From a virus (Duplodnaviria > Caudoviricetes): DNA of 64,000 bases. Positions within the stretch are counted from its first letter, which is position 1, and the number at the start of each line of letters is the position of its first letter. This document shows positions 4,111 through 56,243 of this stretch, one piece after another. Where the stretch lies: IMG/VR virus record IMGVR_UViG_3300048852_000007, positions 1-64,000 of that record. The stretch is one strand, 5' to 3'. Below the pieces are notes generated by a model. That model ran no database searches and was not told where the DNA came from. It was given only the letters and a program-made list of their open reading frames with translations. The position numbers were made by a program, and so were the translations under genes.

Positions 4111-5088
4111 GTGATCACCAATACCTCGGACATCTCACTCGCCCTGGCGGTGTGGCTGCTCCACGACGAATACGACTACATCGACAAGCCCAACTACATC
4201 TCAGCCACCTCCCTGATGAAGCCGCTGCGGCACATCGTCCTGGCACCTCGGGTCGATAAGGCAGCCCAGCCACCGGATGTGGAGGAATTCATTGCCCGAG
4301 CCATGGGGCACTCCATTCATGACGCCATTGAGCGGGCCTGGACCAAGGGCCACTCCAGGGCACTCAAGCTTCTGGGTTATCCCAACAGCCTGATCGAGCG
4401 CATCAAGGTCAATCCCACGGATGAAGAGGTCCGGGGATCCAACAGCATCATCCCGATCTATCTCGAACAGCGGGCTTTCCGTGAGTTCAAGGGCTTCACC
4501 ATCGGGGGGAAGTTCGATCTGGTGACTGACGGTATCGTCCAGGACGCCAAATCCACTTCTGCTTTCACCTGGGTCAAGGGTGGCAAGGACGACGACTACC
4601 GCCTCCAGATGAGTCTCTACCGCTGGATCGACGCTGCCCAGCCGCTGCCGAAGATCACGGAGGACTACGGCCGGATCAACTTCATCTTCACGGATTGGCA
4701 AAAGGTCCAGGCCCGGACCAATCCGAAGTACCCCCAGAAGCGGGTTGAGCACAAAGAGATCCCTCTCCTTTCTCTTAAGGAAACGGAAACCTGGGTGGAG
4801 AATAAGCTTGCATTGATCCAGCGACACAAGGACACACCTGAGGCTCACCTCCCGGAATGTTCCGATGAAGAGCTATGGCGCAGTGATCCCGTGCATAAAT
4901 ACTATGCCGACCCGGCCAAGACATCTGGCCGTTCTACCCGGAATTTCGACAGCCTGGTTGAGGCCCGTACCTTTCAGGCTGAGAAGGGGAAGGGAACCGT
5001 GATTACGGTCCCTGGTGAACCAAAACGGTGCGCCTATTGCGAGGCGTTTAGCGTCTGTACGCAGAAAGACAGGTATTTTCCGACATGA
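4111..5088 (+). CDS. PD-(D/E)XK-family exonuclease (N4 gp42-like)
   Basis: GGKFDLV...QDAKSTS nuclease core; Y..QMSLY motif; C-terminal RCAYCEAFSVC Cys cluster. Confidence 0.85.
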   Translation: MITNTSDISLALAVWLLHDEYDYIDKPNYISATSLMKPLRHIVLAPRVDKAAQPPDVEEFIARAMGHSIHDAIERAWTKGHSRALKLLGYPNSLIERIKVNPTDEEVRGSNSIIPIYLEQRAFREFKGFTIGGKFDLVTDGIVQDAKSTSAFTWVKGGKDDDYRLQMSLYRWIDAAQPLPKITEDYGRINFIFTDWQKVQARTNPKYPQKRVEHKEIPLLSLKETETWVENKLALIQRHKDTPEAHLPECSDEELWRSDPVHKYYADPAKTSGRSTRNFDSLVEARTFQAEKGKGTVITVPGEPKRCAYCEAFSVCTQKDRYFPT

Positions 5089-7247
5089 TCGACTTGACAG
5101 GCGTAGAGCATCATCCGGTGATCGAGGAGATCGTGGATGTGCTGTGCAGCAAGACTGACAACACGGACAGAGGCTTCTTCCGGACAGAGATGGCCTATTA
5201 CCTCGGGAAGATGGCTTCCTGTATGCGGGCCACCGTCGTCACCGAGGATCGTGGGGAGAATCCGGTCAACATCTATGCCGTAGCCCTGGCCACTTCAGGC
5301 TATGGCAAGGGCCACTCCGTCAACATCATCGAAGATGGGTTGATGAAGGGGTTCAAGCGGCGGTTCATGCAGGACACCATGCCGGTCCTGTCGGACACCA
5401 ACTTCTGGGCCATCGCCAATGACCGGGCGCTGCGGAACAATTCCGATCCGCAGGAAGAGTACGACAAAGTGCTGAAGGAATACCGCTCTGCTGGTTCCTT
5501 CCCCTTCACCTTCGATGATGGGACGGTGGCTGCGGTCAAGCAGCTGCGCCAGAAACTGATTCTGGCGGGGGTGGGTGCCATCAATTTCCAGGTGGACGAG
5601 ATCGGATCCAATCTGGAGCGCAGCATGGAGATGCTCAACCTCTATCTGGAGCTCTATGACCAGGGGTTGGTGAAGAACAAGCTGATCAAGAACACCAACG
5701 ACAACCAGAGAGCCGAGGAGGTTGATGGTAAGACCCCCAGCAACATGCTCCTCTTCGGGACTCCTGCCAAACTCTTCGACGGTGGCAAGACAGAGGACGC
5801 ATTTTACTCTCTGCTGGAGACCGGCTATGCCCGTCGCTGCCTGTTCGGGTATGGCCAGAAGGATAAGCGCGTTCGGGGAACTCAGAGCCCGGCTGAAATC
5901 TACCAGCACCTGATCAATCCCAAGAACAACGCCGCTGTCACCAAGTGGGCCACCCACTTTGAGACTCTGGCAGATCCGGCCCGGTATGGTTGGCGGATGA
6001 ATGTCGAACAACCTGTCGCCATTCAGCTGCTGACCTATAAGATCGACTGCGAGAATCGGTCGGATGAGCTGCGAGAGTCTCAGACGATCCAGAAAGCTGA
6101 GCTGGAGCATCGCTACAACAAGGCGCTCAAGCTGGCCGGGGCTTATGCCTTCGTGGATGGCTCCAATGAGGTGGAGATGGACCACCTCATGCAGGCTATC
6201 CTGCTGGTGGAGGAGTCTGGGCAGTCTTTTCAGAAGATCCTGCACCGGGAGAAGCCACATGTCCGGCTAGGGAAGTACATCGCGGACATTGGGACCGAGG
6301 TGAACGACCACGACCTGATTGAGGCCCTGCCCTTTTACCCCAAGTCTCAGAATGTCCGTAACGACATGCTGAAGCTGGCTACCGCCTGGGGCTATACGAA
6401 CAACGTCATCATCAAGAAGCTCTTCGTTGATGGGATCGAGTTCTACAAGGGGGAGACTCTGAAGGTCACCGATCTCTCGAAGATCCGCATCTCCTACAGC
6501 GACCACTGGGCTTACAATTATGAGCCAGAGGAGGTGCCCTTCGATGCGCTGCACCAGCTGACCCAGGCACCGGGGATGCACTGGGCCAACCACCACTTCA
6601 AGCAGAACCATCGGGCCGAGGAGAATGTCCTCAGCGGCTTCAATCTGCTCGTGCTCGATGTGGATGGTGGGATCTCCTGCGACATGGCGCATGAGCTGCT
6701 GAAGGAGGTCAAGTTCATGACCTACACCACCAAGCGCAGCACACCGCAGGAGAACCGCTTCCGACTGCTCATCCCGACCAACTACGTCCTGGAGTTGGAC
6801 AAGGAAGAGTACAAGGAGCTGGTGAACGACGTGGTGACCTGGCTCCCCTTCAAGGCCAGTGTCGATGAGTCCTCCAATCAGCGGTCCAAGAAGTGGATGA
6901 CGTTCGAGGGGGGCACCTTCCACTACAATATGGATGGCGCCCTCTTTGACATCCTGCCCTTCATTCCGAAGACTAAGAAGAATGAGGACTATCATCAGGA
7001 GTTCAAGAAGGTCGAGAACCTCGACAATCTTGAGCGGTGGTTCGCTCAGCGCATCGCCAACGGCAACCGCAACAACAACATGATCAAGTTCGCCCTGGCT
7101 CTCGTGGACGGGGGATCGGACTTCCTCACCGTCTCTAGGCAGGTTCATGCCTTCAATAAGAAGCTGAACACGCCGATGGATGAGGAGGAGATCGACAATA
7201 CGATCCTGGTCACCGTGGCCAAGCGGTTCCAGAAGCACGCTGCCTAA
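5085..7247 (+). CDS. DNA primase/helicase-like protein (N4 gp43-like)
   Basis: N-terminal ATSGYGKG P-loop-like motif; C-terminal AEP-like VLDVDGG, YTTK, RFRL and a GNRNNNMIK PriCT-like tail. Confidence 0.88.
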   Translation: MIDLTGVEHHPVIEEIVDVLCSKTDNTDRGFFRTEMAYYLGKMASCMRATVVTEDRGENPVNIYAVALATSGYGKGHSVNIIEDGLMKGFKRRFMQDTMPVLSDTNFWAIANDRALRNNSDPQEEYDKVLKEYRSAGSFPFTFDDGTVAAVKQLRQKLILAGVGAINFQVDEIGSNLERSMEMLNLYLELYDQGLVKNKLIKNTNDNQRAEEVDGKTPSNMLLFGTPAKLFDGGKTEDAFYSLLETGYARRCLFGYGQKDKRVRGTQSPAEIYQHLINPKNNAAVTKWATHFETLADPARYGWRMNVEQPVAIQLLTYKIDCENRSDELRESQTIQKAELEHRYNKALKLAGAYAFVDGSNEVEMDHLMQAILLVEESGQSFQKILHREKPHVRLGKYIADIGTEVNDHDLIEALPFYPKSQNVRNDMLKLATAWGYTNNVIIKKLFVDGIEFYKGETLKVTDLSKIRISYSDHWAYNYEPEEVPFDALHQLTQAPGMHWANHHFKQNHRAEENVLSGFNLLVLDVDGGISCDMAHELLKEVKFMTYTTKRSTPQENRFRLLIPTNYVLELDKEEYKELVNDVVTWLPFKASVDESSNQRSKKWMTFEGGTFHYNMDGALFDILPFIPKTKKNEDYHQEFKKVENLDNLERWFAQRIANGNRNNNMIKFALALVDGGSDFLTVSRQVHAFNKKLNTPMDEEEIDNTILVTVAKRFQKHAA

Positions 7248-7308: not shown

Positions 7309-7497
7309 ATGAAGATCACAGAAGCTCTGACTGATCAGATCACAGCTGAAGTAGCTATGAATAAGAAAGCTGTTGCTTTTCGGGATGCTGAAAAAGCCTA
7401 CAACGAGGCGCACCTGCGATACGTGGTTTGTAAGGATAAGGTGAAAGCTATTCTTAAAGCTGAGGAAGATCGTCTCTGGAAAATCCTTGATGTCTGA
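7309..7497 (+). CDS. Hypothetical coiled-coil protein, 62 aa
   Basis: ATG at 7309 after a GGAGA RBS; AT-richer codons than neighbours. Confidence 0.65.
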   Translation: MKITEALTDQITAEVAMNKKAVAFRDAEKAYNEAHLRYVVCKDKVKAILKAEEDRLWKILDV

Positions 7498-8230
7498 TAG
7501 CACTCCCGAGACCAACGACCAGCTTATTCTAGTCGTCGGCTACTCCGCTGCTGGCAAGAGTGCCAGCCTGCGGAACATCCGGAACCAAGAAGGATGGCTC
7601 TATCTGAACACGGAAGCAGGTAAGCGCCTTCCCTTCAGGAACAAGTTTCAAGCTCACCGCATTGAAGATCCCTTCCAGGTCCATGAAGCCTTCGACCATG
7701 GGACGGATAACCCAGAGGTCCAGGGTATCATCCTGGATTCCCTGACATTTCTCATGGATATGTACGAGACCCAGTACGTCCTGAATGCCGCCAACGGCAT
7801 GAAGGCTTGGAGTGAGTTTGCCACTTACTTCAAGGTGCTCATGCAGCAGAAGGTTACCCGCTTCGGCAAGCCCACCATCATCACCGCTCACGTCAAGGAC
7901 GAGCTCGACGAGAAGGCGATGGAGATCAAGACCAGTGTCCCCATCAAAGGGTCACTGAAGAACAACGGCGTAGAAGCCTACTTCTCCACTGTCGTCGCTG
8001 CCAAGCGCATGACGCTCAAAGACCTGGCTACCTATAGTTCTTCCCTCCTAAATATCTCGGAGGAAGATAAGGAGCTTGGATACAAGCATGTCTTCCAAAC
8101 TCGCCCAACCAAGACTACGGTTGGCGAACGGATTCGTTCACCCATGGGTCTCTTTGATAAGAACCAGACTTACATGGACAATGATTGCCAGATCCTTCTG
8201 GATCACCTGAACGAGTTCTACCGGAACTAG
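7490..8230 (+). CDS. AAA-family ATPase (N4 gp44-like)
   Basis: Walker A VVGYSAAGKS; Walker B IILDSLT; position upstream of SSB. Confidence 0.88.
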   Translation: MSDSTPETNDQLILVVGYSAAGKSASLRNIRNQEGWLYLNTEAGKRLPFRNKFQAHRIEDPFQVHEAFDHGTDNPEVQGIILDSLTFLMDMYETQYVLNAANGMKAWSEFATYFKVLMQQKVTRFGKPTIITAHVKDELDEKAMEIKTSVPIKGSLKNNGVEAYFSTVVAAKRMTLKDLATYSSSLLNISEEDKELGYKHVFQTRPTKTTVGERIRSPMGLFDKNQTYMDNDCQILLDHLNEFYRN

Positions 8231-8266: not shown

Positions 8267-9037
8267 ATGAGCCTCTTCGGTAATCTGAAGAATGAGGGTC
8301 TGGAAGAGACCACCGATCGCATCGGTGGCTATCAGCCGTTCGAGACCGATGTCTACACCGGCCCGATCAAGATGATCTATGCCGGCGCCTCGGCCGGCGG
8401 TGCGCAGAATGTCACCGTGATTCTGGATCTCGGCGGCCGTGAGTACCGCGAGACCATCTACGTCACCAATAAGAAGGGTGAGAACTGGTTCCCGAACAAG
8501 GATGACCCGAAGAAGAAGGTCCCCCTGCCGGGCTTCACCACCGTCAATGACATCTGCCTCGCTGCCGGCGGCAAGGAGCTTGCTGACCTGGAGTGGGAAG
8601 ACAAGGTGGTGAAAATCTACGACGCCGAAGCCAAGAAGGAGATGCCGAAGTCGGTTCCGGTGGCCACTGAGCTGCTGGGTCAGGTTGTCTCCGTCGGCAT
8701 CGTCAAGGTGCTGGAGAATAAGTCCACCAAGCAGGGTGATGTGTTTGTCCCCACTGCTGAGACCCGGACGGTGAACACCATTGAGAAGGTGTTCAACACT
8801 GAGACCCGGATGACTGTGGTGGAAGCCCGCAACGGTGCCACTGAGGCGAAGTTCTGGGATGCCTGGCAGGCTCGGAACAAGGATCAGACCCGCGACAAGC
8901 GGACCATCAAGGACGGCCAGGCCGGTGCTCCGATGATGGGTCGTCCTGGTGCCAACCGGGCTCCGGCTGGTCCTCCGCAGGCTGGTGCTGCTGGCCAGAA
9001 CCAGCGCAAGAGCCTGTTCGGCAACAAGGCGGCCTGA
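8267..9037 (+). CDS. ssb: N4-type single-stranded DNA-binding protein (gp45-like)
   Basis: MSLF N-terminus; flexible Ala/Gly/Pro tail ending RKSLFG, typical of N4 SSBs; gene order. Confidence 0.88.
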   Translation: MSLFGNLKNEGLEETTDRIGGYQPFETDVYTGPIKMIYAGASAGGAQNVTVILDLGGREYRETIYVTNKKGENWFPNKDDPKKKVPLPGFTTVNDICLAAGGKELADLEWEDKVVKIYDAEAKKEMPKSVPVATELLGQVVSVGIVKVLENKSTKQGDVFVPTAETRTVNTIEKVFNTETRMTVVEARNGATEAKFWDAWQARNKDQTRDKRTIKDGQAGAPMMGRPGANRAPAGPPQAGAAGQNQRKSLFGNKAA

Positions 9038-9109: not shown

Positions 9110-9667
9110 ATGAAGATCCCCGTAGTTGGCTTCGATCCCTCCCTGACTTCCTGGGGCATCGCTGAAAGCGAACTCGATCTGACTACGGGGTATCTTGATA
9201 CCCCTCGTCTGAGGGTTCTGGAACCAGAGAAGATCAAGACCAAGCAGGTCCGGCAGAACTCCACGGATCTCGATGTGGCAAAGCAGCTGGCAACAGCTGC
9301 TCTGTCCACGGCCAGATCCGCCAAAGCTGTCTTCGTGGAGGTTCCCGTTGGTTCCCAATCCGCCAGAGCCATGGCGTCCTATGGAATCTGTGTCGGAATC
9401 CTCGGTACCCTGATGGCCGAGGGTGTGCAGCTGATCGAGGTCACTGCAACCGAGGTTAAGAAAGCCTTAACCGGGAACAAACACGCAACCAAGGATCAGA
9501 TGATCACTGAAGCCCGGAAGCTCTACCCAGAAGCCAACTTTCCCATGTGGCGGGGAGAGGTTGCCTCCAAGGCTGAGCATGTGGCAGATGCCATTGGTGC
9601 GATCCACGCTGGAGTGGGCACACCGCTCTTCCAGAACCTCATGAAACTTTATAACCAGGAGACTTAA
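9110..9667 (+). CDS. RuvC-like Holliday junction resolvase (N4 gp46-like)
   Basis: VVGFDPSLTSWG, VFVEVP, EHVADAIG acidic catalytic motifs. Confidence 0.85.
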   Translation: MKIPVVGFDPSLTSWGIAESELDLTTGYLDTPRLRVLEPEKIKTKQVRQNSTDLDVAKQLATAALSTARSAKAVFVEVPVGSQSARAMASYGICVGILGTLMAEGVQLIEVTATEVKKALTGNKHATKDQMITEARKLYPEANFPMWRGEVASKAEHVADAIGAIHAGVGTPLFQNLMKLYNQET

Positions 9668-10204
9668 GTGCAGATCACGATCATCCAGGCTGAGATTGAA
9701 GAGGCCATCCGTAGCTGGATCGGCAGCCGCCTGAAGGTGGCAGAGGGAATGGAGACGACTATCGAGCTCCTGGCGACCCGTGGTGCCGAGGGCTTCAAGG
9801 CCATCATCGACATCAACCCGGCAGCCGATATGCCGACCCAGACCGCAACTGGCATCAATATGGCGACCAACAGCCAGCGCATTGTGCCGGCACGGTCTGA
9901 AGCCGAAGCTGCACAGCAGGTTGCTGAGGTTGCTCAGGCTGCCACTACGGTCAGCAGCATCTTCGGTGGCGCCAACCGTCCGGTTCGCACTGCTCAGGAT
10001 GTCCGCGAGATGATGGCGGCCGAAGCTGCGGCGGAAGAGAAGACCGACACTGTTGAGGCTCCCTTCGATACCGCTGTAGCCTCTGAGAACGTCCCTGTGA
10101 CGGAAGCTTCCGACACCAACGAGGATGAAGCTCCGGCTCAGTCCCCTCCCCCGTCCACCGCGAAGAGTCTCTTCAAGGGACTCCGTAAGCCGACCAACTC
10201 CTGA
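9668..10204 (+). CDS. Conserved N4-like hypothetical protein with acidic/Ala-rich linker
   Basis: GTG start abutting the upstream stop; folded-looking N-terminus, low-complexity middle, KSLFKGL tail. Confidence 0.75.
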   Translation: MQITIIQAEIEEAIRSWIGSRLKVAEGMETTIELLATRGAEGFKAIIDINPAADMPTQTATGINMATNSQRIVPARSEAEAAQQVAEVAQAATTVSSIFGGANRPVRTAQDVREMMAAEAAAEEKTDTVEAPFDTAVASENVPVTEASDTNEDEAPAQSPPPSTAKSLFKGLRKPTNS

Positions 10205-10404
10205 TGAGCTACGCCGGGATCCTCTTAGTGGGGGTTCTGGCCTTGATCGCGGTGCTGGTCGTCAGCGCGATCATCGTAGCCACAGCTCCCTACCTGGCTG
10301 CGGTCATAATAGTCACCTCCGTCTGCTGGTGGGCGTTCGGTAGGGACGACAAGCAGTTAGGCGAGAGTTCCAGTGCACCGACCAAAGTGGACCCAAGGGA
10401 GTAA
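10204..10404 (+). CDS. Small two-TM membrane protein
   Basis: TGATG overlap; two hydrophobic segments. Confidence 0.7.
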   Translation: MSYAGILLVGVLALIAVLVVSAIIVATAPYLAAVIIVTSVCWWAFGRDDKQLGESSSAPTKVDPRE

Positions 10405-10423
10405 ACCTCCCTGGGTCTTTTCT
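10390..10423 (+). terminator. Rho-independent terminator
   Basis: GACCCAAGGGAG-TAAAC-CTCCCTGGGTC followed by TTTTCT. Confidence 0.7.
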
Positions 10424-10429
10424 AATTTC

Positions 10430-10800
10430 AGAGTGTCTCGGTAGGAGCAGACCCCAGCGGGAAGGGGGACGGAGTAGTAAGGTGACAACCAGCTATCAAC
10501 CTGGTGGGTAACCTGAACCTAGCCGTAAACGGAGTGGCGGGAAGGGCTGATAATCCTGATGTGTCCACACCGGCCGGGCTTCATTACATTTCATGACAGA
10601 GCTTGAGATGCTTCGTCCCTTCCCGCGAGGGCAGCATCTCCAGAGGGTAGCCAGGATTAGCCTGGCTACCCTTTTCCAATCCCAGCCGGGGGGTAACACG
10701 GCCCAGCCAGAGATCTCCATGGAAGATCTTTGATCGCTGGTGACGGAAGCCGGGTCGGACCTCGGACACAGGGGTGACAGGCCGGAGAGACGGCCACCAA
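10430..10800 (+). ncRNA. Candidate large structured non-coding RNA of unknown family
   Basis: About 370 nt with no credible ORF, many stems, and loop-loop complementarity (see findings); strand inferred from flanking genes and terminators. Confidence 0.45.
10644..10676 (+). terminator. 12-bp hairpin with T tract (terminator, or internal stem of the ncRNA)
   Basis: AGGGTAGCCAGG-ATTAG-CCTGGCTACCCT-TTT. Confidence 0.6.
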
Positions 10801-10817
10801 TTCCACAGGAGTGCCCG

Positions 10818-11129
10818 ATGGGCTTCAACTCAGTGCTGGTCGTGCTGAACGATCGCCTCGATGAGATCGAACGTGATCCAGAGTTCGGAAAGAAAGTGGC
10901 TGATGCCATCCGAAGCCATGGATACCCACGATACCAGCGTTATGTGACAGGCCAGACCCAGGTTATCTCCGTCCACCATGCTGATACCCTGGCTGTGGTT
11001 GCTGTTGGTGGCAACACAGGAAGGATCATCGGTTACGGGCATTGGTCTCAGGATGATGAGTCTCTGATCCAACACCTGGAACGAGAGCGCAAACGCAAAG
11101 CGAAGGAAGCCAAGTCCAATGGCGTCTAA
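10818..11129 (+). CDS. Hypothetical protein, 103 aa
   Basis: CAGGAG RBS before ATG at 10818. Confidence 0.7.
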   Translation: MGFNSVLVVLNDRLDEIERDPEFGKKVADAIRSHGYPRYQRYVTGQTQVISVHHADTLAVVAVGGNTGRIIGYGHWSQDDESLIQHLERERKRKAKEAKSNGV

Positions 11130-11403
11130 GCGCATCAACGATCTGAAATCCCGAGTGGGGGATCTGGAGCGTCAGCTCCAGGAGGCTAAGAAGCGTCTTC
11201 ATCAGGCCCAACTTGAAGAAGCTGGTGTATCTGTGGGCGATGTGGTCGTCTTCAAAGGTGAAGAGTTTCGGGTAGCCTCCGTAGATCCGTCCCCTTACGG
11301 CAAAGCTTGGGTCAAAGGAAATCCGAAAAAGATGAACGGCACTTTTGGAAATGCCGTTCGTTCCCTTTATGCAGATTGGGAGAAGCTTTCCTCCCAACCT
11401 TAA
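11119..11403 (+). CDS. Hypothetical protein (coiled coil plus small beta domain)
   Basis: AAGGAAG RBS; overlaps the upstream stop; converges with the vRNAP gene. Confidence 0.7.
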   Translation: MASKRINDLKSRVGDLERQLQEAKKRLHQAQLEEAGVSVGDVVVFKGEEFRVASVDPSPYGKAWVKGNPKKMNGTFGNAVRSLYADWEKLSSQP

Positions 11404-11420
11404 GTTCCCGCCCTGCTGGC

Positions 11421-14400
11421 TTAGTGTGCCAGGTTGAGCCAAGGGTTCAGCCTGAAGGCACCGAAGCCCATACCTGGTCCGATGGAGTGGCCGAGTGTGC
11501 CCTCCAGACCCTTGGTGAAGAGGTTGTCGGTCAGAGGTGTACCGACACTCCCAAGGCCAGGCGGGCTTGGCAGCACATTGGCCAGTAGGGCATGGACCGG
11601 ATTGTTCCTGATCGTCGAGAGGGCGATCTTCGCAGCACGGATCTTGAAATGGTAGAACCAGAGAAGCCCATTGGCCTCCAGAGCCCCACGGAAGCGACCA
11701 GGGAGACGATCGTAGTTCACGAACTCCTCAGTGACTCGACCGAGAGCATACTTTTTAGGCTTCTTTTGGCGAACCGTGATGTCATCATAGATGATCGCCT
11801 TCGCCAGGAAGTCGCCGTACTCCACCGCTTTCTGCATACCCTGAAACAGGGCAGTGTCCTTAGTGACGAGAGCATACCGCCCAGCAGTACGGAGACTGTC
11901 CGGAAGTTTCTCGGTCAACCGCTCCATGTACTGATGCCAACGACCTTCCGAAAGTAGGATCTCGTCACGAGAGATGCCCACATCCGAGATCGAGCTGAAT
12001 TCACCAACCTCGATCAGCGGCCAGATCGACATACGCCGGTAGCTATCCTGGATCGACTGGATCTCAGCCTTGAGCTTACGGGACTGAACCACATCCTGAG
12101 CTGCCTCAGCAGCCCGAAGATCCGCCTCAGCCTCGATCTCCCGCAGCCTGCTCTTGGTGTAGGCGTGGATCTCGGCAGTCTTCTTCGGCAGACCCCGAGC
12201 AATGTCCATCAGAGGCACCCCTCGGCTCATCATCTGATAGATGTTGGAGACGAAGTTCGCTGCTGGAACCACCATAGACTTCACCACAATGAGCAGACGA
12301 GCATCCTTCACCACGTTCTGGATCGTCTTCTCGCTGTTCATCAGGTAGCGATACGCATCGTTGCCCATGACGCCAAGCGCAATGCGCTTCACCTGCTCCT
12401 GCTTGGCAGGAGTCCAATGGGAAATCCCCGTCCAGGCGTCACCTATCGAAGCATTCCGATAGCCCAGTGCATCGTTGAGCATATCTCGACGCACATAGAA
12501 TGCCTCCCCCCCAAAGACTGACCGGGCATGGTCCCGCACTTCCTTCGACATCAGAGAGACCGCATCCCTGAGCACGGGATCCAGACGCTTGGTGTCGAAG
12601 AGATCCACATACTGGGACTGGTTCCCCGAGCTGGCCTTCACGTCCTCTTGGTGCATGCTGTGGAGAGCGTCGATCAGCTTCTCATTGTAGATGCCCGCCT
12701 TGGCCTCTTCGACCTGGCGACCACGCCATACACCGATCATCTTGGCCAGGTGAGTATCCCGGTTCAGCCGATCGAGGTGAGCCGGATCCACACTCCGCTC
12801 AAAAGCCACCACCTCCCCAGTCTCGTTAAATACCGGCAGCAGATTTTCACGAGTACCGCCCTTCTCTTGATGCAACCTACGGTTGATTAGCGCAACCGAG
12901 GCCGGGTCCGCAATACGTCCAGCAACCAGCCCATCAGTAAAACCAGTGCTGGCTTCCACACCCGAAGCTGTGGCCCTGACATTCTGCATGATGCCCTGGT
13001 TGAAGGGACTGCGAGCCGAGACAGGAGCGAAGTAGTAGCTCTGCTTATTCTTGGACCCCTCCGCAGCAGATCCACCGTAATCACCCACCCGGACGTAGCT
13101 CTTCTCAACCAACTCTACGTAGCGGTCATCATCCGCCACGATCAGGCTTACCCCGTCCTGCTGGGTCGAAGGGATGTGCCCCTTGTAGTGGTTCAACCGA
13201 GCTCGCCCAGAAGCCGCCTTACGTTGCTCCTCGACTCGCTGGCCCACCAGGTAGGCCAAGGTGAACTCCATGCCCTGAGCCTCATCCTGGGCCAGGGAAG
13301 CCATGCTCTCCCGGTCCTGGGTGGAGAGGTTCTTCAGAGCATAGAGCGTCACCAGCTGATCCACGTCAGCGATGAAGTCCCGATCTGGACTGACTCTGCC
13401 CTTCTGGGTCCGCTCCCCGAGGAGACGCGAGACAGCCTCGGCATTGCGCAGCAGGTTCGAGCCAGGCTCACCCGTGCCCATGTAGTGGGCCAGTTGCTTG
13501 GCCTTACGCTGGAGCAGGCTCCAATGCGCCTGGTCCTTGCCCGATAGCGTGCTCTCCAGGCTACGAATGCTCCGATCCAGCTGGGTCTCATCCTCCAGAT
13601 GGGTGAGGATCTCGGCCGGGGTGAAGTGCCTGGCGAGAGCTGCCAGGTCCGTCTTGCCCATGCCTCGGAAGAGGGTGCTCCACTCAGCATCGGTCAGCTT
13701 GCGGGAGAACTTGCCAGCGATGATCGTCGGCAGGTGCTCACGGAACTGCTGCCGATCCTGCTGCACATCCGACCGGGTGCGCTTGATCAGGTCATAGACA
13801 TTCATGTTCGAGCTGGTCCGGCCAATGAGATCAACCACCAGCTCCCGGATGGGCTGAAGCCCCTTCACATTGTTCATCATCGTCATGACGCCTTGGGCCA
13901 CCTTCTCGGCCTGGTCCTCATTGACGATGGCAGCGGTGACCCGAGCCGAGGCAGCCAGCCCCTGGGTCAACTTGTTCTGGTGCTTGGCGTCCAGTCTCTC
14001 GGCTGCGCTCACACCCCTGGCGGCCAAGGCATTCAGACCATCGACGATGATCTGATTGGCTCGATCCACCAGCCCACCAACCGGGGATGCCAGCTGGTCG
14101 ATGAGGGTTTGCCGCTCCTGGCTCACCTCCTGGATCCGACGGGAGAGGGCATCCACCGCCTCCTGCACATTGGCTGCCTTGTCGATGCCGGAGATCCTCT
14201 GGGAGAGCGACTCCAGGGCGATATTGCCGGCATTCTCCAGCACCCCGTCCAACGTGTTCCAGCCCTGGAGCACGGTCTTAGGCAGGGCGATCTTGGCCAT
14301 GGCTGTCCGCATGGGATCGTTCACCATGGCCAGACCCAGGAACACCGGCAGCAGCGAGGAGCGACCAACCCCGTCCGTCTCGACGAGGAAGTTGCCCATC

Positions 14401-17400
14401 ACCGTGTCGAACTTCTCCTGCGCCTGGTAGCGGTCAGCCGGATCCAGACTATCAGGATCCGCCATGAAGTCCTCGACCTTGAGGGTCTTGGTCACATGGG
14501 CATAAAGGCTTTGGGCCATCGCCATGGAGTTGGGGTCGATAGCTGCTTCGGTGGCCAGAGCTGCTGTTACCGCCTGGAAGGTGGTCAGCTCCTGCGGCGT
14601 CATGGCGAAGCCATGGGAGACCACCGAGTTGACCAGCCGGCTGGCACCGAGGATAGCCAGGTCCACCTTGCCCTGCCGGTCGATCCGATCGACGGGGTTG
14701 GTGTTGAGGTAGTCCACCACCTGCTTGTCGAAGGTGGCGTTGATCTGGGCCAGGCGCTCACTGTCGCCATAGGCCGTGCTCATGAAGAGCGTGGCATCCC
14801 GCACCTGGCTCTGAAGTGAGGGCTGGCTGCGGACGATGATGCTGGTGTTGAACAGCAGGTTCGAGAGCATGTCGTCTTCAGGCTTCGAGACCTTGGCCCG
14901 ACCGAAGACGAGACGCTTGATCGCCTGGAAGACATCCTTGGCAAGCTGAACCAAGGGGGAAGCCTTGGTCTTGCTCATGGTCTCGGCCAGGTCTTTGTTG
15001 GCCAGGCCCCAAGCCATGAACTCGTTCAGAGCCGCAGCAGGACGACCACCGATCTGGTGTCCATGAATGGCACTCTTAGCAAAAGCGTAGGCATTGCTGT
15101 CGTCGTTCAGAGCCAGGAACTGATCCTGAAGCTGGAGCAAGCGACCAACCGCAAGCTCAGCTTCCTGGTCCTTCAAACGACCATCCAGCACAGCCTCCAC
15201 CTTCTCGTAGGTGGCTGCATGGATCAGCTCATGGACCAAAGTCTCCCTGGAGGGGGAGATCAGGTAGATCGTGCTTTCCCCCGGCACAGTGACACCCTTG
15301 GCGCCATGCACACGCATGGGAAGGGTTAGACCCTTCTCCTCTGCATAGTCAGACAGCTGCTCAACTGTGCCATAGATCACCCGGTAGTCCTTGGCAGCTC
15401 CAGTGCGATGGATCTGATCGAAGATCGTTTGCTGGGCAGGAGCTAGACCAAGCTTCTTGGCGATCTTGTTGATCGCCGTTGGGCTGAGGATCCGCACCTT
15501 CGACTTCGGATCCACCCGACCAAAGGTGAGCTTCTCCTTGGCCGGCTCAATGGCCGGCTTGGTTTTCACCGAAACCGGCTTCGTAGCTGGGGTTTCCGTC
15601 ACTGGCTTGGGTTTGGTGGCCGGCTCTTTTACCGGCGCAGAAGCCTGTTCCCGTCGCTCTGGGTCGATGTTGCTGCGACCGGGCTTTTCACCCAGGTTCA
15701 ACATCAGCTTGTCCAACTCTTCGAGGTAAAGCTTGTTCAGCTCCTCGCTGATTTCCTCCTCGTTGGTTCCCTGAAGCTCAATCCCCTTGTGCTCGTAGGG
15801 GGAGGAAGCCGCTGCCATCTGGTCGATGCTGTGAGACACCCGAGCAATCGCACTGTGACGGGCTTCAACCGAGATCCCTGCCCGGCGAAGTTCCTTATCC
15901 AGATCCTGGATAGCTGCGGCAACGGCACCGTAAGTGGGCTCCCGAATGCCCAAGGTCCGGCCAAGCTTATTCAACATCTCACCGGGGTAGTCAGCTGTCG
16001 GGAAGCTGGGAATGGACTCAGAGAAGGCGAGGGATACCGCCTGAATCGGGTTCCCCTGCCAGGCATCGAACACCGCCTGGTTCGCCTTACGGCTGGAGTC
16101 CTCCAGCTTATCGAGCGGGAAGTTCACACCGTCGAAGATCTTCAGCGAGCCAGTGGGAGCCCCCTTCATGGTGGCCAGGGTCTGCATCATCTGGCCGTCG
16201 CCAGTGCCAATGACCATCATCGGGATGCCTGCAACGCCAGCATCCGTAGGGCCATACACGAAACCGTTCGTACCGATGTGGCCAGTAAGAGACTTGCTCC
16301 ACTCGCTGGCATTCACGTCCGTGGACTGGGAACCAGCGATAAAGAAGCTCTGGCGTCCCGTCTCAACGAGGGGGAACCGCTTCAGCACGTCTGAGAGGAT
16401 GTCATCCCGCTCCTGTCGGGAGAGGCCGTCAGCCTTAGCTCGGGGATCCTGAGCAACCTTCTCTGCGATCTTGGCCCGCACTGCCTCGTTGAAGGTGTGC
16501 TGCTGGAAGATCGACTGGATCTGGGTGGCCTGCTGCACCAGCTTGGCAGACTCCATCAGCGGCTGGCCAATGGTCTGGGTGATGGCTTCCCGCAGCGGCT
16601 TCACAAAGAGATGCTGCATATTGGTGCGGAGGTTCGTCAGACGAGCCTTGTCCACCGTGAAGGTCTTCGCATCGAAGCCTTTCATGGGCTCAACATTCTC
16701 GCCCTGGCTCAACTCCAGCTTGCCCTTGCGACGGGCTACCACATTGGTGGTCAGCGCCTTGAACGCCTTGGAGAAGCGCACCAGCTTGGCCTCGGCCGAG
16801 GCCAGGTCCGTGGAGACACTGCCGAACATGGCTTCAGAGAAGGCCATCTTCGGATTCTCATCGAGCTTCGCCGCCACCTCGGACATGCGCTCATAGAGCT
16901 GCTCGATCATCGCGCTGGTCACCTTGCCAGCGATACCCTTCTCACCTGAGCCATAGATGGTGATGGTCAGGGGGTTCTTGGCGATGCCCCGGTTCATGAC
17001 CAGCTTGCCGTCCTGGATCTCGAAGTCCGGGAGGAAGAGATCCATGAGATCCTTCATCAGGTTCAGCTGTTCCTGAACCTGCGGGGAGTCGATCTCAGCC
17101 GTCAGCTTGGCGAACTCATCAGCCAGGTTGTCGGTGGTGGTCTGGTACATATCCTTGGTATCGTAGCCGTCACCATGCTGTTCGTTCATGGTCCTCGGAC
17201 CACGAAAGAACAGGCCACCCTTGGCCATACGATTCACCCATTCCTTGGTGAAGCGTCCGGAGGTCAGCAGCATCATGGCGTTGACCGGGCCATTGGTCAC
17301 ACCATCGGCTTCGACGTAGATCGAGGTGGTGAAGCTGCTGCGGTCCTGGGTCTCCTGAAGCCGGGCGTATTCAGCCACGGCATGGAGTGCCATCACCGTC

Positions 17401-20400
17401 AGATCGTTCTTAAGGCCCGACTTCATCACCTCAACCAGGCGAGGATCCACCTTGCCGGTGTTGTGGAAGTCCCGGAGCATCTCCACAGCCGGAGCCAGGG
17501 GACCAGAGAGAAGCTTGTCCAGATCCTTGCGAGCGGCATCGAGCTTCTTCTTGTGGACCTTCACGCCGAGAGCCTGTGCCAGACCGAGAGCAAACTTCCG
17601 GTAGTCCGTGCTGTTCTCGTTGCTCAGATCCAAGGTAGAGCGCGTGGGGAGAATAGCTTCACGCACCAGCTTGGTGCTCTGGGGGTTGTAGCGTCCCAGC
17701 ATCTGGAGACGACCCACCCGGTTCACATTGTAGGCGTAGTGGATGGGGAGCTGATCCTGTTCCACGCCAGCCTTTTCAGCCGCATGGCCGACCTCGGTCA
17801 CAAGATTGGTCAGATGGTGGAAAGCCGCAGAGATCGTGCGGTTCTGTCCATCAAGCGACGCAGCATGGTTCTTGTTCAGCACTCGGCCTTCAAGATTCCC
17901 CGCACCGAAGAGACCCAGCAGGTTGTCCAGTCCCAGAGCTTCGTAGAGCTTGACCATGGGGACATTCAGATAGTGCGGAGTCTCCTGCTCCTTGCGGATC
18001 ATCGCCTTCTGTTCAGGAGTGTTCCGCACAGCAGGGTTACGGAGCTGGGTTGCCGCAACCTTGGGCCGGGCATCACCGAAGTAAGTCACATCCTCTGGCT
18101 CAATCAGCACCATTTTCTCGATAGAGCTGGGAGACTTCAGGATCGGATCATCCTTCTCTCGCGCCTTGGCCTCATAGAAGTTGAGAGTCTTGGTCTCTCC
18201 CTGCGGCAGACCGTCCTCATCAGTGATCCTCACCGGAGAGAGGATCAGATCCCCGCTCTCCAGCAGAGCTTCCATCACCTCAGCAGCCATGGCTTCGGGG
18301 ATACCCTCAGCATAGCCATCGGGTACATCGGCATTGGTCTCCAGACCCCAGAACTGAAGGATCTTGTCGGCCAGAGTCCGCTTCGCCGTGACGGTGGGCA
18401 GACCCTTATTGGAGAGTTTCCCGATCAAGGTCTCCTCATCAATGATCTCATCCTCGGGGATGCCGGTCAGAGCTGAAGCCGCCTTCTTGTCGATCTGGGA
18501 TTCCCGCTGGTCAGCCGTCAGCAACCACTGAAGCCCGGCCAGGATCGCACCTTCCAGAAGTTCCTGGTTGTAGCGGAGCGTCTTGCCGTCTGGCTCAGTG
18601 ATGTTCAGCGGCTTGCCATCAGCAAAGCTGTTGGCGGGCTGGCCTGACAGGAATCGCTCCAGCAGAGGCTTGCCTGCGTTGTCACCAGTCTTTGGGGTGT
18701 TCGCCAGATACCTCTGAAGGCGAGCATCCATGATTTTGGCCAGGGTCTTACCCTGACGCAGGTAGCCACGGTACGCCTTGGCGATGTCGGTGTCCTCAGC
18801 AGCATCGACCGCCTTGATCGCATCATCAAGCGGGGTGTCAGTACCGATGGTGTGGGTCTTGGCTTCTTTCGGGAGCTTGAACGCCCGCTTGAACCAGTTG
18901 ACCACCTTGCTCCCTGGCTCAGAACCAATGAGCTTCGGGTAGGCCGCATCCATGCCCTGGAGTGGGGCTTCGGGTTTGACAAACGACACCTGCTCGGGAC
19001 GGAAGACAACAATCTCCTCGTACCGATGCTCAGGATCTGCAAACAGCAAGCCATCATAACCCCGAGCGACAAGATCATCCATCTCTGCCCTGGAGATAGA
19101 GGTGATGGTGATGCTGTCGTCGTCTTTAACCAGGTAGGGGTTGGTCAGGTTGACATAGAGCGGCACAATAGAGACACCGTTCTTCTCAGAGATCTTGCTC
19201 TGGTACTCAGAGAGAGTCAGCTTCTCGGCGCCCTGAGGAATATCAGCCCCAGCCACGGCAGCGGCATAAGAGATATTGCGTGTGGTGTAGAAGCCAATCT
19301 TCTTGTTGTTTATGGCACCGACATTGCCTTTCAACCAAAAATTGGCTCCAGAGTTTTCCCGCTCCGTTTGAATGTTCTTCAAGTCCTCTGGATTCTTGGT
19401 GGCGTGGTACACCTCACCTTGAATCACACTATCCTTGAAGGGGTTGTTCTGGTTACGAGGCTCGGCCTTGACCTTAGCCGGTTTAGCCTCGGCCGCAGCT
19501 TCCGTCGTTGCTTCCGCCGCCTGCGGCGTCGAAACCACCTCCGCTACCGCTGCGGCTTTGGGCTCTTCTTTCTTTGGTTCGGCCTTTGGCTTCGCCTCAG
19601 GCTTGTCTATCGCTTTTGCTTCTTTCTGAGAGGCAACAGGTTTTGTCTCTCCAGACCGCGAATCAACAGGCTTCGCTTCAGCCTTCGGCTTGGAGCCAGG
19701 ACGAACACGCTCACCCTTCTGAAATGCCTGGACCACTTTGTAAGGGTTGCCCTGGAGATCCTGGTTCAGAGTGGGAACCTGGATCTGCTCCCCATTCAGC
19801 GCCGGGAAGGCAATACGCAAACCCTCGTAGATCTCGGCCAGGCGCTGAGCTTCCAGCTGCACACGCTGAGCCAACTCAACTGAGCCAGCATTGTGAGGAT
19901 GTACAGCCAGGCCAGCCTTGTCCTGGTACCACTCCCGAGTCGTGGGGTTAAGCGCCTGGTAGGAAACATTCCTCCCACCACCCTGGGCGAAGTGCTGATT
20001 CAGTGCCCCGACCTTGTTCGCCATGTGCTGGACGAACTCGCCGAAGCCTTTGAGGTGGGACGCCGCCAGCTTGGTGTTACCTGCCCGCATGGCCTGGGCA
20101 ATGCGGTTGTAGTGCGCTACCGCCGAGAGCTTCGGAGCATTGGGATCCGGGTCCACCTGGATCTGGTCCGACACATCGTTCAGGAGACGCTTGTGACCCA
20201 GCGCCTTCTGCTCATCGCTGGCTTTCTTGGCGGCTTCCAGGATGGCCTTGGACGCCATGAGCGCCGAGCGTTGCGAGTCGGTAAGCTGGATGCGACCCTG
20301 CTCAGCGTGCATCAGGACCATGTTGGTCGCTTCAAGGTTCCCCTTGTGCGGCGCAATCTGGGCGATACCGACGATGTTCTGAGCTTGCTGCTGTCCCTCC

Positions 20401-32378: not shown

Positions 32379-34547
32379 TCATATAACTGCTTCCAGTCTA
32401 TCACTGAGTACGTTGAAACCAATAGCTTCTTCAACTTTAGGGCGCTTCTCACCCTCTTTGACTGGCTTGGTGAGGGCTTTGGTCACTTCCAGAGCCTGAT
32501 TACCTCGGCTCTGAGCCTGTTGTTTCTGCAACTCTCGGGCATGTGTCGTACCCGTCTCTTGCTCAACGAAGTTCAGATCCTGGATATCAGCCTTGGATTT
32601 GGCTTCCTGTGCCCTGGCCTGGTTCAGCTGTGCCTGGCTCTCCAGCTCCAACACCTCGGCCTGGAGCTTCCGCAGTTCGAGCTGCTTCATCTGCTCCACC
32701 AGGGGATCCGGCTGCGGTTTGAAGGTAGCGATCTTGTGGGCCAGAGCCGGCATCCGCTTGAGCTCGGCAATCTCGGCCATGATCAGCTGCGCCAGGTCCG
32801 GCATGTTGGGGCCGACCGTTTGCAGCATAAAGGCCATGTCCTGGGCCTTGGCGTTGTCCACCTCGACCGTGGAGATATCCACTTCCAGGTCGAAGTTGCC
32901 CTTGAGATCCTCCCGGAGCACTTCGACGAACTCAGTGTTGGTGACCCGGACCACCTCCTTGTCGGAGAGGAATTCGGCATTCATGGCGATGATCTTGCGG
33001 CCGATCTCCGTCATGCCCTTCGCCAGGCGACGGAGGATGGCCATCTCCCGCTTGGAGGCAGCGTCCAGCACACCTCGGATACCGGCCGCCACATCGCCAT
33101 AGGCTTCCCCGGAGACGCCACCAGAGAAGCTCTTCACGCCTGTCAGGGCCTCAGCCTCCTGGTTCTGGAGGTTCAGCATCAGGAGTGCGCTCTGCGGCAG
33201 CTCGGGATACTTGTGCTCGATGTGGCCATTGGCGGGATGGACACTCGGGTTGAACTCATAGTCCCGACCATCCTCGAACCGCCGACGGTTCAGCGGATCC
33301 AGCATCCCCTTGGCAAAGCCCTGCTGACCATTGGCCGACCGACCCAGCAGGTCGATCATGCCTCGGGTGACCGCACCCAGGATCTTCTGGTTGTCCTCCA
33401 GCAGCTCGGCATCAGGCTCGCCGTAGAGGTCCCGCTTCACCGGCAGGTAGGGAACCACCACAAAGGGCACTTCCTCGTCCGGGAAGGGATTCATCTCCAT
33501 GCGGATGATGACATCGCCGATCCAGGTAGCGACGAAGGGCACCAGCTTGCCGTTGCCCTCTACGTCGTAGAAACCCCAGTACTCGTAGGCCACCACTTTC
33601 TTGCGGGAAGGGTCGTTGAAATTGAACTCGACCGGGGTCTTGGTCTCATGGTTCGGCTCACTCATCGGAGTGTTGGCCTGCCAGTTGACCTTATCGAGGT
33701 TCTTGTAGCGTTTGCCCTCTTTCTTCAGCTCGGCCTGATAGGTCTCGAAGGAGACGATGACGAACATCGCCTTCGTCAGATCCCCCTCACAGGAGGGGTC
33801 GATGAAGACGTTCCTCGGGTTCATCACCCGAAGAGTGGGCTTGTTCTCGATAACCTTCTCGACGGTGACCTCTTGCTCACCCGTCTGCACCGCCACGGTG
33901 GCGACCTGGTTCTCCTCGTAGTAGGCCACCGCCTCCTTGAGAGCCGGAGGAGCCTTCTCCTCGAAGCCCCGGAGATTCTCTTGCTTCAGTGCCAAAGCCT
34001 GTTGGAGCTGCTCAGCCTGCTCGGGGGTAGTGACCTCAAAGTGGGTCCAGACCGGAGCCATCTCCTTGACCGGGACGGTGACCCGCTTCCAACCCACCTG
34101 GACGATGCTGGTGCCTTCATCCACGGTGGCCCGAACATAGTCGTCGATGAACTTCACCCGGTTGAGTTTGGTGCGGAACTGGTAGTTCAGGACCAGCTCA
34201 TTCTGCTTGGCTCCGGCCTCATCCTCGAAGGTGGTGGGGCTGACCTTGAAGAGCTTGTTGGAACCAAGGAAAGGCTCCGTCAGGGCCGAGTAACGCCACT
34301 CAGCCTGGCGACGAATGAGCTTGGGCTGGACGGAGGAACGCCCCTTGTTCTTGGGAGCAGCCGCACTTCCCCGAACCTGCATCAGGTCGTTCCAATGCTG
34401 GATCCGGGTAACCTGTGCCTGCTGGGCAGGTGTAGCCGCCTCCAGATCCTGCTTCAGTTGCTGGATCGAGGGCTCTTTCTTCCAGCTGGTCAGCTTCTGA
34501 GAGGACGCCTCACTTCGCTGAAACTGCATTCCGTCCATGTAAAGCAT
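32379..34547 (-). CDS. Portal protein (N4 gp59-like)
   Basis: [41 protein letters not shown] motifs; 722 aa. Confidence 0.93.
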
Positions 34548-50531: not shown

Positions 50532-50554
50532 GGTGCTCCGCACCTTGTAGGAGG
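50532..50554 (+). promoter_or_regulatory. vRNAP early hairpin promoter 1
   Basis: GGTGC-TCC-GCACC-TTGT-AGG: 5-bp stem, 3-nt loop, 4-nt spacer as in N4 early promoters; upstream of gp1. Confidence 0.85.
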
Positions 50555-50601: not shown

Positions 50602-50946
50602 ATGGCCGTAGCTACCGCTCGTATGACCGTTGGTTCCCTCTTCGCCACTGTTGGTACCGCTGCTAATGCCGTTACCTCGGTGTTGGACACCACTGTTCGC
50701 AGTGTTTCTATGCTGGACCGCTATGTCCGTGATGCCCAAGAGCGTCAGGATGCCCGTTCCACCGTGGATATGGACTCATTCACCGAGCAACTCCGGGACG
50801 AGAAGTCTATGGAAGAGGCTATGCGCAAGAAGCAAGTGCTGGATTTCACTTCCCAGTCTGAAATTAACCAGCAGCTCTATGCTGCCGCCTATGACCGTAT
50901 CGGCAGGCTGCTCGACTCCCGTAAGAAGGCTGCTCCGTCCGCTTAG
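50602..50946 (+). CDS. N4 gp1-like early protein
   Basis: ARMTVGSLFATV...ANAVTSV...SV.MLD pattern; first gene after promoter 1. Confidence 0.75.
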   Translation: MAVATARMTVGSLFATVGTAANAVTSVLDTTVRSVSMLDRYVRDAQERQDARSTVDMDSFTEQLRDEKSMEEAMRKKQVLDFTSQSEINQQLYAAAYDRIGRLLDSRKKAAPSA

Positions 50947-51008
50947 TCTCTAACTCCCTCAGCTCACCATCATGGTGACTGGGGGAGACTCCCCTTCGGG
51001 GAGGGGAG

Positions 51009-51062
51009 ACTGTGGATAGGCAGACACTCTGGATAGATAGACTTCCACTCTGGATAGGCAGA
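51009..51062 (+). repeat. Three 16-bp direct repeats ACT(G/C)TGGATAG(G/A)(C/T)AGA
   Basis: Copies at 51009-51024, 51026-51041 and 51047-51062. Confidence 0.8.
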
Positions 51063-51084
51063 GAGACGCTCCGCGTCTCATAGA
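51063..51084 (+). promoter_or_regulatory. vRNAP early hairpin promoter 2
   Basis: GAGACGC-TCC-GCGTCTC, 7-bp stem with TCC loop. Confidence 0.8.
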
Positions 51085-51270
51085 GAGTGGGATGGTGGAG
51101 GAGAGTGATGGGAGAGTCTAACTCTCCATCATCTCTATTCCCTCAATTTGGATGTTGAGCCTGTCTCCATCCATTTCCCATCATCCTCCAATCCTAAACT
51201 CTCCCGAAATCCTATCCACCCATGGAGAGGATGCTCATTCCCTCCAACACAAGTCGAAAGGACTCAACTC

Positions 51271-53403: not shown

Positions 53404-53426
53404 GGCACTCCGTGCCTTGTAGGAGG
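53404..53426 (+). promoter_or_regulatory. vRNAP early hairpin promoter 3
   Basis: GGCAC-TCC-GTGCC-TTGT-AGGAGG; shares CCTTGTAGGAGG with promoter 1; upstream of gp2. Confidence 0.85.
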
Positions 53427-56209: not shown

Positions 56210-56243
56210 AAGGGAGAGAGCATCCAGCTCTCTCCCTTTTCTA
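56210..56243 (+). terminator. Rho-independent terminator
   Basis: AAGGGAGAGAGC-ATCCA-GCTCTCTCCCTT followed by TTCT. Confidence 0.82.

Follow-up and report, generated by a model that had tools for sequence, protein, structure and literature searches.

A gene-free gap in an uncultured N4-like phage as a candidate small-RNA locus

What, if anything, is made from a gene-free stretch of some 400 nt that follows the replication genes of an N4-like phage? The stretch lies in the window analysed here, which is the first 64 kb (64,000 nt) of a 75.9-kb IMG/VR virus record (IMGVR_UViG_3300048852_000007) from an N4-like (Schitoviridae) phage. A first-pass annotation had proposed that it encodes a single functional RNA of ~370 nt, held together by kissing hairpin loops.

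Position and coding status of the gap

The gap marks the end of a rightward block of replication genes. Its neighbourhood is laid out as follows.

5085–7247, + strand: primase, in the rightward block upstream of the gap
7487–8230, + strand: Sak4, in the same block
8267–9037, + strand: N4-type SSB, in the same block
9110–9667, + strand: gp46/RuvC-like gene, in the same block
9668–10204, + strand: p178, after the gp46/RuvC-like gene
10204–10404, + strand: p66, a small membrane protein from the ORF list, the final gene ahead of the gap
10405–10817: gene-free gap of ~413–414 nt between p66 and p103
10807–10811, + strand: ribosome-binding site (RBS) of p103, AGGAG
10818–11129, + strand: p103, a mobile small gene matching PHROG 7147
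11119–11403, + strand: p94, the last rightward gene
11334–11359: terminator hairpin from the terminator scan, facing the vRNAP gene
11421–22337, − strand: virion RNA polymerase (vRNAP, 3638 aa), convergent to p94

The translation of p66 is hydrophobic in its N-terminal half and matches PHROG 19025; relatives carry a gene of ~53 aa in its place. Brucella and Caulobacter phages have homologues of p103, as do unrelated metagenome contigs; these homologues begin at the same methionine, and none has a gap-like sequence upstream. Together p103 and p94 form an acquired gene pair, foreign and mobile.

The gap itself is non-coding. Codon-usage log-odds over 10400–10750 were at or below about 0 in all six frames, as compared with 0.33 ± 0.14 for true frames, and every + strand frame across the gap is broken by at least 5 stops. 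No Pfam or PHROG family matched the small ORFs of the gap or its six frames read through stops, and tblastx against the loci of relatives detected no gene remnant. The description of the region as a gene-free block following a terminator is therefore accurate, the six-frame coding tests being negative and a weak terminator (t1, see below) preceding it.

Known RNA families were equally absent, in line with the first reading, which could not match the region to tRNA, tmRNA, RNase P, SRP or intron cores. Rfam at the gathering score gave no match in the whole 64 kb, and the gap matched none of the curated families for RNase P, tmRNA, SRP, 6S, introns, pRNA or riboswitches. When the threshold was relaxed to E ≤ 10 for positions 10200–11000, no tRNA appeared, and the best E-values (6 to 9) belonged to small-RNA families of eukaryotes and archaea, namely miRNA precursors and a snoRNA, and represent noise. 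ARAGORN called no tRNA or tmRNA gene, with or without the -ps option; lowering its thresholds to 80% and 70% yielded just noise calls on the opposite strand. Taking as a tRNA either a cloverleaf (Rfam RF00005) of at least 29 bits or an ARAGORN call, the gap contains none, and at E ≤ 1 none was found in the entire 75.9-kb genome. Two other classes were considered and rejected. A 6S-like RNA lacks an Rfam match, and the predicted fold is multi-branched, not rod-like; as to a MITE, the phage has no second copy and, by eye, no target-site duplication. A CRISPR-repeat mimic (RNA anti-CRISPR) was also considered; the repeats in the gap are just 10 nt long.

Repeats, terminators and predicted folding

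All of the stems and repeats listed in the first-pass annotation are present in the sequence. They are given here together with the elements that emerged from folding and from the terminator scan; all lie on the + strand.

10396–10422 (hairpin 10396–10412), + strand: t1, a weak intrinsic terminator from the terminator scan, with a 6-bp stem AGGGAG/CTCCCT
10440–10474, + strand: 5′ arm of the predicted helix P1, holding X1 and pairing with 10611–10641
10452–10455/10464–10467, + strand: CCCC/GGGG stem
10457–10466, + strand: X1, GCGGGAAGGG, first direct copy
10481–10513 (core 10488–10492/10501–10505), + strand: internal hairpin with core ACCAG/CTGGT and an 8-nt loop, in every predicted fold
10537–10546, + strand: X2, GCGGGAAGGG, second direct copy
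10605–10640 (arms 10605–10612/10633–10640), + strand: H3, a local hairpin, GAGATGCT/AGCATCTC, with X′ in its loop
10611–10641, + strand: 3′ arm of P1, holding X′
10617–10626, + strand: X′, CCCTTCCCGC, the inverted complement of GCGGGAAGGG
10644–10676 (arms 10644–10655/10661–10672), + strand: t2, a perfect 12-bp hairpin with a 5-nt loop, then TTT CC AAT
10703–10740, + strand: hairpin/palindrome CCAGC..AGATCT..AGATCT..GCTGG in the putative p103 leader, from sequence and folds
10780–10784/10791–10795, + strand: hairpin GGCCG/CGGCC, 12 nt 5′ of the RBS, from sequence and folds

The most distinctive of these are the three 10-mers. X1, X2 and X′ follow one another at intervals of exactly 80 and 80 nt, leaving a 70-nt, tRNA-sized spacer between each neighbouring pair. 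Dinucleotide shuffling of the gap produced a 10-mer present at least three times on either strand in 38 of 20,000 trials, and no 414-nt window elsewhere in the 64 kb has one; the triple 10-mer is thus non-random, and its 80/80 spacing comes in addition to that. An RNA model does not account for this phasing, which counts against an RNA reading. X2 offers X′ an alternative partner, enclosing 70 nt. Between the gap and the remainder of the phage, the only repeats in common are chance 11–12-mers: no gap motif recurs elsewhere in the phage beyond chance, and there is no shared promoter motif.

Two terminator-like hairpins bracket the repeats. In t1 the p66 stop codon lies in the loop and the tail is the T-run TCTTTTCT; this GC-rich hairpin with a directly adjoining U-run is an intrinsic terminator by the usual definition, and its tail sequence CTTTTCTAATT recurs after the terminator at 56210–56238. 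The t2 hairpin formed with a pair probability of 1.0 in all contexts. Its U-run of only 3–4 U is below the rule of the terminator scan, which left t2 unlisted because the T-run is too short. In build, t2 resembles the called + strand terminators at 56210 and 54325, with their 12–14-bp stems, 5-nt loops and TTTT..AAT tails, and it is probably a terminator and the putative 3′ end of an RNA unit; the short T-run counts against reading the upstream segment as such a unit. The earlier proposal of a single ~370-nt RNA is not supported by this arrangement, since the terminator-like hairpin at 10644–10672 separates a unit of at most ~270 nt from a leader of ~140 nt.

Promoters are less evident. No σ70 consensus site scoring at least 9/12 was found in the gap, which again counts against an RNA reading; the best σ70-like sites, at 8/12, are TAAACG-N17-GATAAT (10526–10554) and TCCACA-N15-TACATT (10564–10590). 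N4-type vRNAP hairpin promoters consist of a 5–7-bp stem and a 3-nt loop, and the phage's own elements of this type, GGTGC-TCC-GCACC at 50532, 51065 and 53404, have 5-bp stems and TCC loops. The gap holds none.

Predicted folding favours an RNA read from the + strand. For the whole gap, z was −2.36 (+ strand) and −1.29 (− strand), and for segment 10440–10680 the values against shuffles were −4.75 and −2.89. Measured against other windows of the same phage by GC-regressed minimum free energy (MFE), 10440–10643 ranks only 143rd of 1063, and windows that include the 12-bp hairpin reach rank 9 of 1063; only such windows enter the top ten. Stability is therefore ordinary for this well-folding genome unless the 12-bp hairpin is included, and the phrase "packed with stems" used of the region is true, if unremarkable by the standard of this genome. 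Taken together, the shuffles and the genome background indicate that three features are non-random, namely the 10-mers with their phasing, the long stretch of inverted complementarity and the strong 12-bp hairpin, with no general excess of structure.

In the MFE and centroid folds of 10440–10680, the long inverted complementarity takes the form of P1, a predicted helix of 27 pairs that is imperfect and interrupted by several internal loops. The first five X1:X′ pairs had probabilities of ~1.0. As a duplex, the two arms reach −45.9 kcal/mol on the + strand and −39.5 kcal/mol on the − strand, and 1 of 2000 shuffled arm sets matched the P1 duplex energy. P1 is predicted to enclose the ACCAG/CTGGT hairpin, a weak arm containing X2 and a small 3′ hairpin. 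Its rival is H3, and the two are mutually exclusive: H3 has a probability of ~0.9 in the 413-nt context and of ~0 in the terminated transcript. In terminated transcripts, forcing H3 cost 12–14 kcal/mol, and forcing the X2:X′ helix gave structures ~10–13 kcal/mol above the MFE. Because H3 wins in the full-length context and P1 in the terminated one, the fold is not robust and thermodynamics alone cannot fix it; such dependence of a modelled fold on the chosen ends counts against the RNA reading.

These calculations bear directly on the kissing loops. The 6-bp complementarity between the loops, GCGGGA and TCCCGC, is present in the sequence. The hairpins that would display them, on the other hand, have a probability of ~0 in the terminated transcript, where they are replaced by the 27-pair P1. 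As for a switch between two partners, the duplicate of X1 exists as X2, and its pairing with X′ carries the cost given above.

The corresponding locus in related phages

Direct homologues of the gap were sought in several collections. Blastn against INPHARED phages (including LUZ7) and PLSDB plasmids, blastn and nhmmer against 26 N4-like IMG/VR loci found via the RuvC-like gene, and blastn against that set enlarged by 7 p103-homologue loci (IMG/VR, JGI metagenomes) recovered no homologue of the gap, and an exact 36-mer from it had no match in IMG/VR. Searching with the pattern of phased 10-mers returned sequences that were rejected as unrelated: a 77-nt tandem repeat in a viral contig without an N4-type primase, and, in four bacterial MAGs, tandem repeats of 83–95 nt with a CCCCTTCCCGC..GCGGGAAGGGG palindrome. 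Among 5.8 billion proteins, p178 has no homologue closer than one of 42% identity, and with so distant a best match no close relative of the phage is on record. The absence of homologues counts against the RNA reading.

The position of the gap is informative. Gene order here is primase, Sak4, SSB, gp46/RuvC-like gene, p178, p66, gap, p103, p94 and, on the − strand, vRNAP. That of phage LUZ7 is Sak4, SSB, gp66, gp46-like, gp68, gp69, a gap of ~400 nt, gp70–72 and, on the opposite strand, vRNAP. In LUZ7 the gap between orf69 and orf70 is late and heavily transcribed into non-coding RNAs of <250 nt, sRNA1–3 (Putzeys et al. 2022, PMC9163698), two of which share a start site and end at different terminators (PMC9163698). 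This small-RNA hotspot is the closest known case. Both gaps are syntenic, ~400 nt long and free of ORFs, with internal terminator hairpins and long-range inverted repeats, and the present gap occupies just the LUZ7-type position between a gp46-like block and a convergent vRNAP gene. They differ in that blastn and nhmmer find no sequence similarity between them, and in that the LUZ7 RNAs were observed experimentally whereas any RNA from the present gap is putative. LUZ7 also has what we read as a good σ70-like promoter sequence, TTGACT-N17-CATAGT, where the best sites in our gap remain below 9/12.

Other N4-like phages use the same slot for tRNAs. Coliphage N4 has four tRNA genes there, and tRNAs lie in the slot, on the same strand, in 10 of the 26 metagenomic relatives (loci L006, L014, L016, L018–L021 and L024–L026). 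The gap shares slot and strand with this Schitoviridae tRNA cluster and differs from it in showing no tRNA or tRNA-like signal. Among the 26 relatives the slot measures between 0.5 and 4 kb and its contents are unrelated. It is, even so, enriched in one kind of architecture. N4-like loci totalling 222 kb contain 24 perfect inverted repeats (arms of at least 10 nt, 40–90 nt apart), of which 19 fell in the slot, which makes up 24% of the bases (p = 2e-8, in a count that ignores kinship of the loci and the distinction between coding and non-coding sequence). Several of these repeats enclose tRNA-like cores. The gap, with a 10-bp repeat that encloses 70 nt and a helix of 27 pairs, fits this long-stem module architecture.

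One such module, labelled 'tRNA-Undet' in a few records (N4 32941–33037), is conserved across Enquatrovirinae and Humphriesvirinae, and extends even to T4-like Yersinia phages. Its closing helix of ~25 bp covaries, 15 of its 35 pairs showing compensatory changes over 8 sequences, which indicates that long closing helices are a real RNA-level feature of the slot. A covariance model (R1) built from the module in 8 phages scored its own members at 126–134 bits; applied to 10300–10900 with filters off, it gave a best score of 9 bits, on the t2 hairpin only. The module of the gap is like 'tRNA-Undet' in being closed by a long helix in the same slot, and unlike it in having no T-arm and no match to the covariance model. 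It has, in other words, the architecture and address of the slot without belonging to this family.

Competing explanations and the preferred reading

The gap is truly non-coding and lies where relatives keep tRNA genes or small RNAs, and it therefore probably makes a small folded RNA. In the reading that we prefer, and to which we give even chances of being right, the product is a lineage-specific small RNA or 3′-UTR element, followed by the leader of the next gene. The main competitor, possible though on balance doubtful, is that the gap is punctuation only: t1 and t2 would insulate the replication operon from p103/p94 and limit antisense read-through into the late genes, the remainder would be the p103 leader, no discrete functional RNA would exist and the repeats would be incidental. 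The listing of t1 by the terminator scan, the likeness of t2 to other terminators of the phage, the mobile and foreign nature of the p103 module and the unexceptional overall stability of the gap for this genome are all in keeping with it, as is the report that middle transcripts of LUZ7 and LIT1 read antisense into late genes (PMC9163698). Two terminators, however, need only ~60 nt and not 270, a phased triple 10-mer combined with a 27-pair helix is improbable by chance, and related phages use the slot for RNA genes. Alternatively, the gap might consist of decayed tRNAs or tRNA-like modules, or be a recombination scar in a hypervariable region, with no present function. Relatives do carry degenerate tRNA-like modules inside inverted repeats, and both the tRNA-sized spacers between neighbouring 10-mers and the variable length and unrelated contents of the slot would suit such a remnant; we nevertheless judge it unlikely, as no tRNA signal appears at Rfam E ≤ 10 or with ARAGORN -ps, and three identical 10-mers amid unrelated sequence point to constraint or recent origin rather than decay.

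The remaining alternatives are less probable still. Equal spacing, which RNA models leave unexplained, would be natural in a DNA element whose three 10-bp protein sites, two in direct and one in inverted orientation, have successive centres exactly 80 bp apart and serve as an operator, a looping site or part of an origin, and the end of a replication gene block would suit it. This seems very unlikely to us given that there are just three sites and no AT-rich unwinding element or iteron array, that 80 bp does not correspond to an integral number of helical turns, that no DNA-binding domain was found in p66, p103 or p94, and that predicted folding favours one RNA strand. A degraded protein-coding gene is extremely improbable. 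It could draw on frame 0, which is open from 10593 to 11129 but for one TGA at 10731–10733 and has a codon score closer to zero than the other frames, and on a 137-aa ORF on the − strand; against it stand the stops in each + strand frame (at least 5), the empty six-frame Pfam/PHROG and tblastx searches and the start methionine that p103 homologues share. Just as hard to credit is the ~370-nt RNA with kissing loops, switching partners or joining molecules hand in hand as packaging RNAs do. Its loops are complementary and a duplicated partner exists, yet both small hairpins give up their bases to the long helix in the terminated transcript, no Rfam family matches, a terminator-like hairpin splits the gap, and the neighbours are replication genes and small uncharacterised genes with nothing tied to packaging. 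Complementary loops are the sole feature in common with the pRNA of phi29, from which the gap differs in its lack of an Rfam match, its non-packaging setting and its strong preference for an intramolecular helix; the analogy with packaging or oligomerising RNAs accordingly finds no support. The broader proposal of a functional non-coding RNA is partly supported, by the non-coding status of the gap, the absence of a known family, the predicted + strand bias and the position in an RNA slot.

Returning to the lineage-specific RNA that we favour, the gap may well be the form that the Schitoviridae RNA slot takes in this lineage, an assignment that we rate at even odds, and would then comprise a + strand RNA no longer than ~270 nt and, after it, a leader of ~140 nt. 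Transcription would enter ~10413–10676 by read-through of the weak t1 or from a weak promoter, and would stop at the strong t2 hairpin, leaving a small stable RNA or a long 3′-UTR. The RNA is predicted to fold as a closed domain, with two or three hairpins inside P1 and the terminator hairpin directly next to it; X2, the duplicate 10-mer, may provide a weaker alternative pairing, helped by proximity. The acquired p103/p94 pair would have its leader, and perhaps also its promoter, in the last ~140 nt (10677–10817).

RNase III cuts stalks of this general kind at the intergenic R sites of T7 and in the sequences flanking 16S and 23S rRNA. The predicted P1 resembles them in that flanking inverted sequences form a helix of at least 20 bp that encloses or ends an RNA within a long phage transcript, and differs in its several internal loops. 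By analogy, it may be long enough to act as an RNase III-type stalk for excising or stabilising an RNA. A bolder version, which we think quite unlikely, would make the gap the source of a new lineage-specific RNA of ~200–240 nt in the tRNA slot, with a closing helix that switches between X1 and X2, excised by its stalk from the middle transcript and with a trans effect on either the host or the middle-to-late switch.

As an orphan sequence from an uncultured phage, the gap has small immediate value taken alone. If a stable RNA is made from it, it would be a second case beside LUZ7, and an unrelated one, of a non-tRNA small RNA in the tRNA slot. If so, and together with the enrichment of long stems there, this would suggest that the Schitoviridae have a general 'RNA cassette' site, at which tRNAs, tRNA-like RNAs and small RNAs are swapped between lineages.

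Long-stem modules and a conserved RNA in the slot

Closed long-stem modules, defined as perfect inverted repeats with arms of at least 10 nt lying 40–90 nt apart, are strongly concentrated in one slot of N4-like phages, the one that separates the gp46/RuvC-like gene from the end of the convergent vRNAP gene. Across 222 kb of N4-like loci, counted without regard to the relatedness of the loci or to coding status, 19 of the 24 perfect inverted repeats fell within the slot, which makes up 24% of the bases (p = 2e-8). tRNA-like cores often lie beside these modules or are enclosed by them.

Long-stem modules in the slot
L037 (phage N4), 8710-8789, 8942-9038 and 9134-9217
L036 (LUZ7), 14633-15005
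Other relatives, slot regions of L004, L008, L014, L016, L018-L020 and L026

A conserved RNA of ~100 nt, labelled 'tRNA-Undet' in a few records, combines a T-arm-like hairpin with a closing helix of ~25 bp, and is found in Enquatrovirinae, Humphriesvirinae and the T4-like Yersinia phages TG1 and phiR1-RT.

Occurrences of the conserved ~100-nt RNA
L037 (phage N4), 8942-9038, equivalent to NC_008720 32941-33037
L017, 6339-6454
L056-L061

Among eight sequences, compensatory changes were present at 15 of the 35 predicted pairs. An Rfam search of L017 (E <= 1) returned no match for this RNA, and a covariance model built from eight phages (R1) gave weak matches at L021 5707-5785 and L019 5820-5912.

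tRNA genes and a tRNA-like sequence

Whereas N4 and many of its relatives carry tRNA genes, the phage studied here has none: the Rfam tRNA model (E <= 1) found no tRNA gene in its whole 75.9-kb genome. Separately, a tRNA-like sequence was observed in one comparison locus (L004, 5053-5152), with an identical copy in another (L005, 3159-3258). It has a 7-bp acceptor stem, a T-arm (GGTTCGACTCC), a 3′ ACCA end and a shortened anticodon arm, and is enclosed by an inverted repeat of 12–15 nt; it was called neither by ARAGORN nor by Rfam at E <= 1.

Stable regions and candidate promoters in the window

After GC correction, the two most stable 204-nt segments of the + strand were 50940-51143 (z -4.0) and 11400-11603 (z -3.8). 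The former overlaps the likely vRNAP-type promoter region, where CTCTGGATAG motifs are repeated. The latter, which has a terminator hairpin (11334-11359) just upstream, begins at the p94 3′ end and extends into the vRNAP gene at its 3′ end. Perfect hairpins with a 5-bp stem and a TCC loop numbered three in the window versus ~1.3 expected by chance, and two of the three are followed by TTGTAGGAGG. They probably represent the phage's early promoters for vRNAP.

TCC-loop hairpins with perfect 5-bp stems
50532-50544, + strand, GGTGCtccGCACC
51065-51077, + strand, GACGCtccGCGTC
53404-53416, + strand, GGCACtccGTGCC

Unrelated tandem repeats, and p103

The pattern search also met an intergenic 77-nt tandem repeat of ~4.5 near-perfect copies, each with GCGGGAAGGGG, in a 73-kb viral contig (IMGVR_UViG_3300037110_000161; L051, 960-1290). 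No N4-type primase was found in that contig, and the repeat is unrelated to the non-coding gap upstream of p103. Further arrays, with periods of 33–95 nt and a CCCCTTCCCG..CGGGAAGGGG-type palindrome in each, come from MAGs labelled Armatimonadetes, Fimbriimonadaceae, Chloroflexia and delta proteobacterium. In appearance they resemble arrays of repetitive extragenic hairpins, and they were retrieved only because the search pattern suits such arrays.

Tandem repeats with periods of 33–95 nt
L052, 82-322
L053, 940-1475
L054, 2954-3144
L055, 5517-5727 and 6580-6733

The p103 leader contains an imperfect direct repeat, GGTGACGGAAGCCGG (10739-10753) and GGTGACAGGCCGG (10773-10785), 34 nt apart, which is a candidate promoter or operator. 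p103 itself (10818-11129) is a small gene that matches PHROG 7147. The gene has homologues in Brucella phages (Tb, Pr, R/C and others; ~42% identity) and Caulobacter phages, as well as in unrelated metagenome contigs from soil and other sources, with a different genomic context every time; p103 behaves like a mobile accessory gene.
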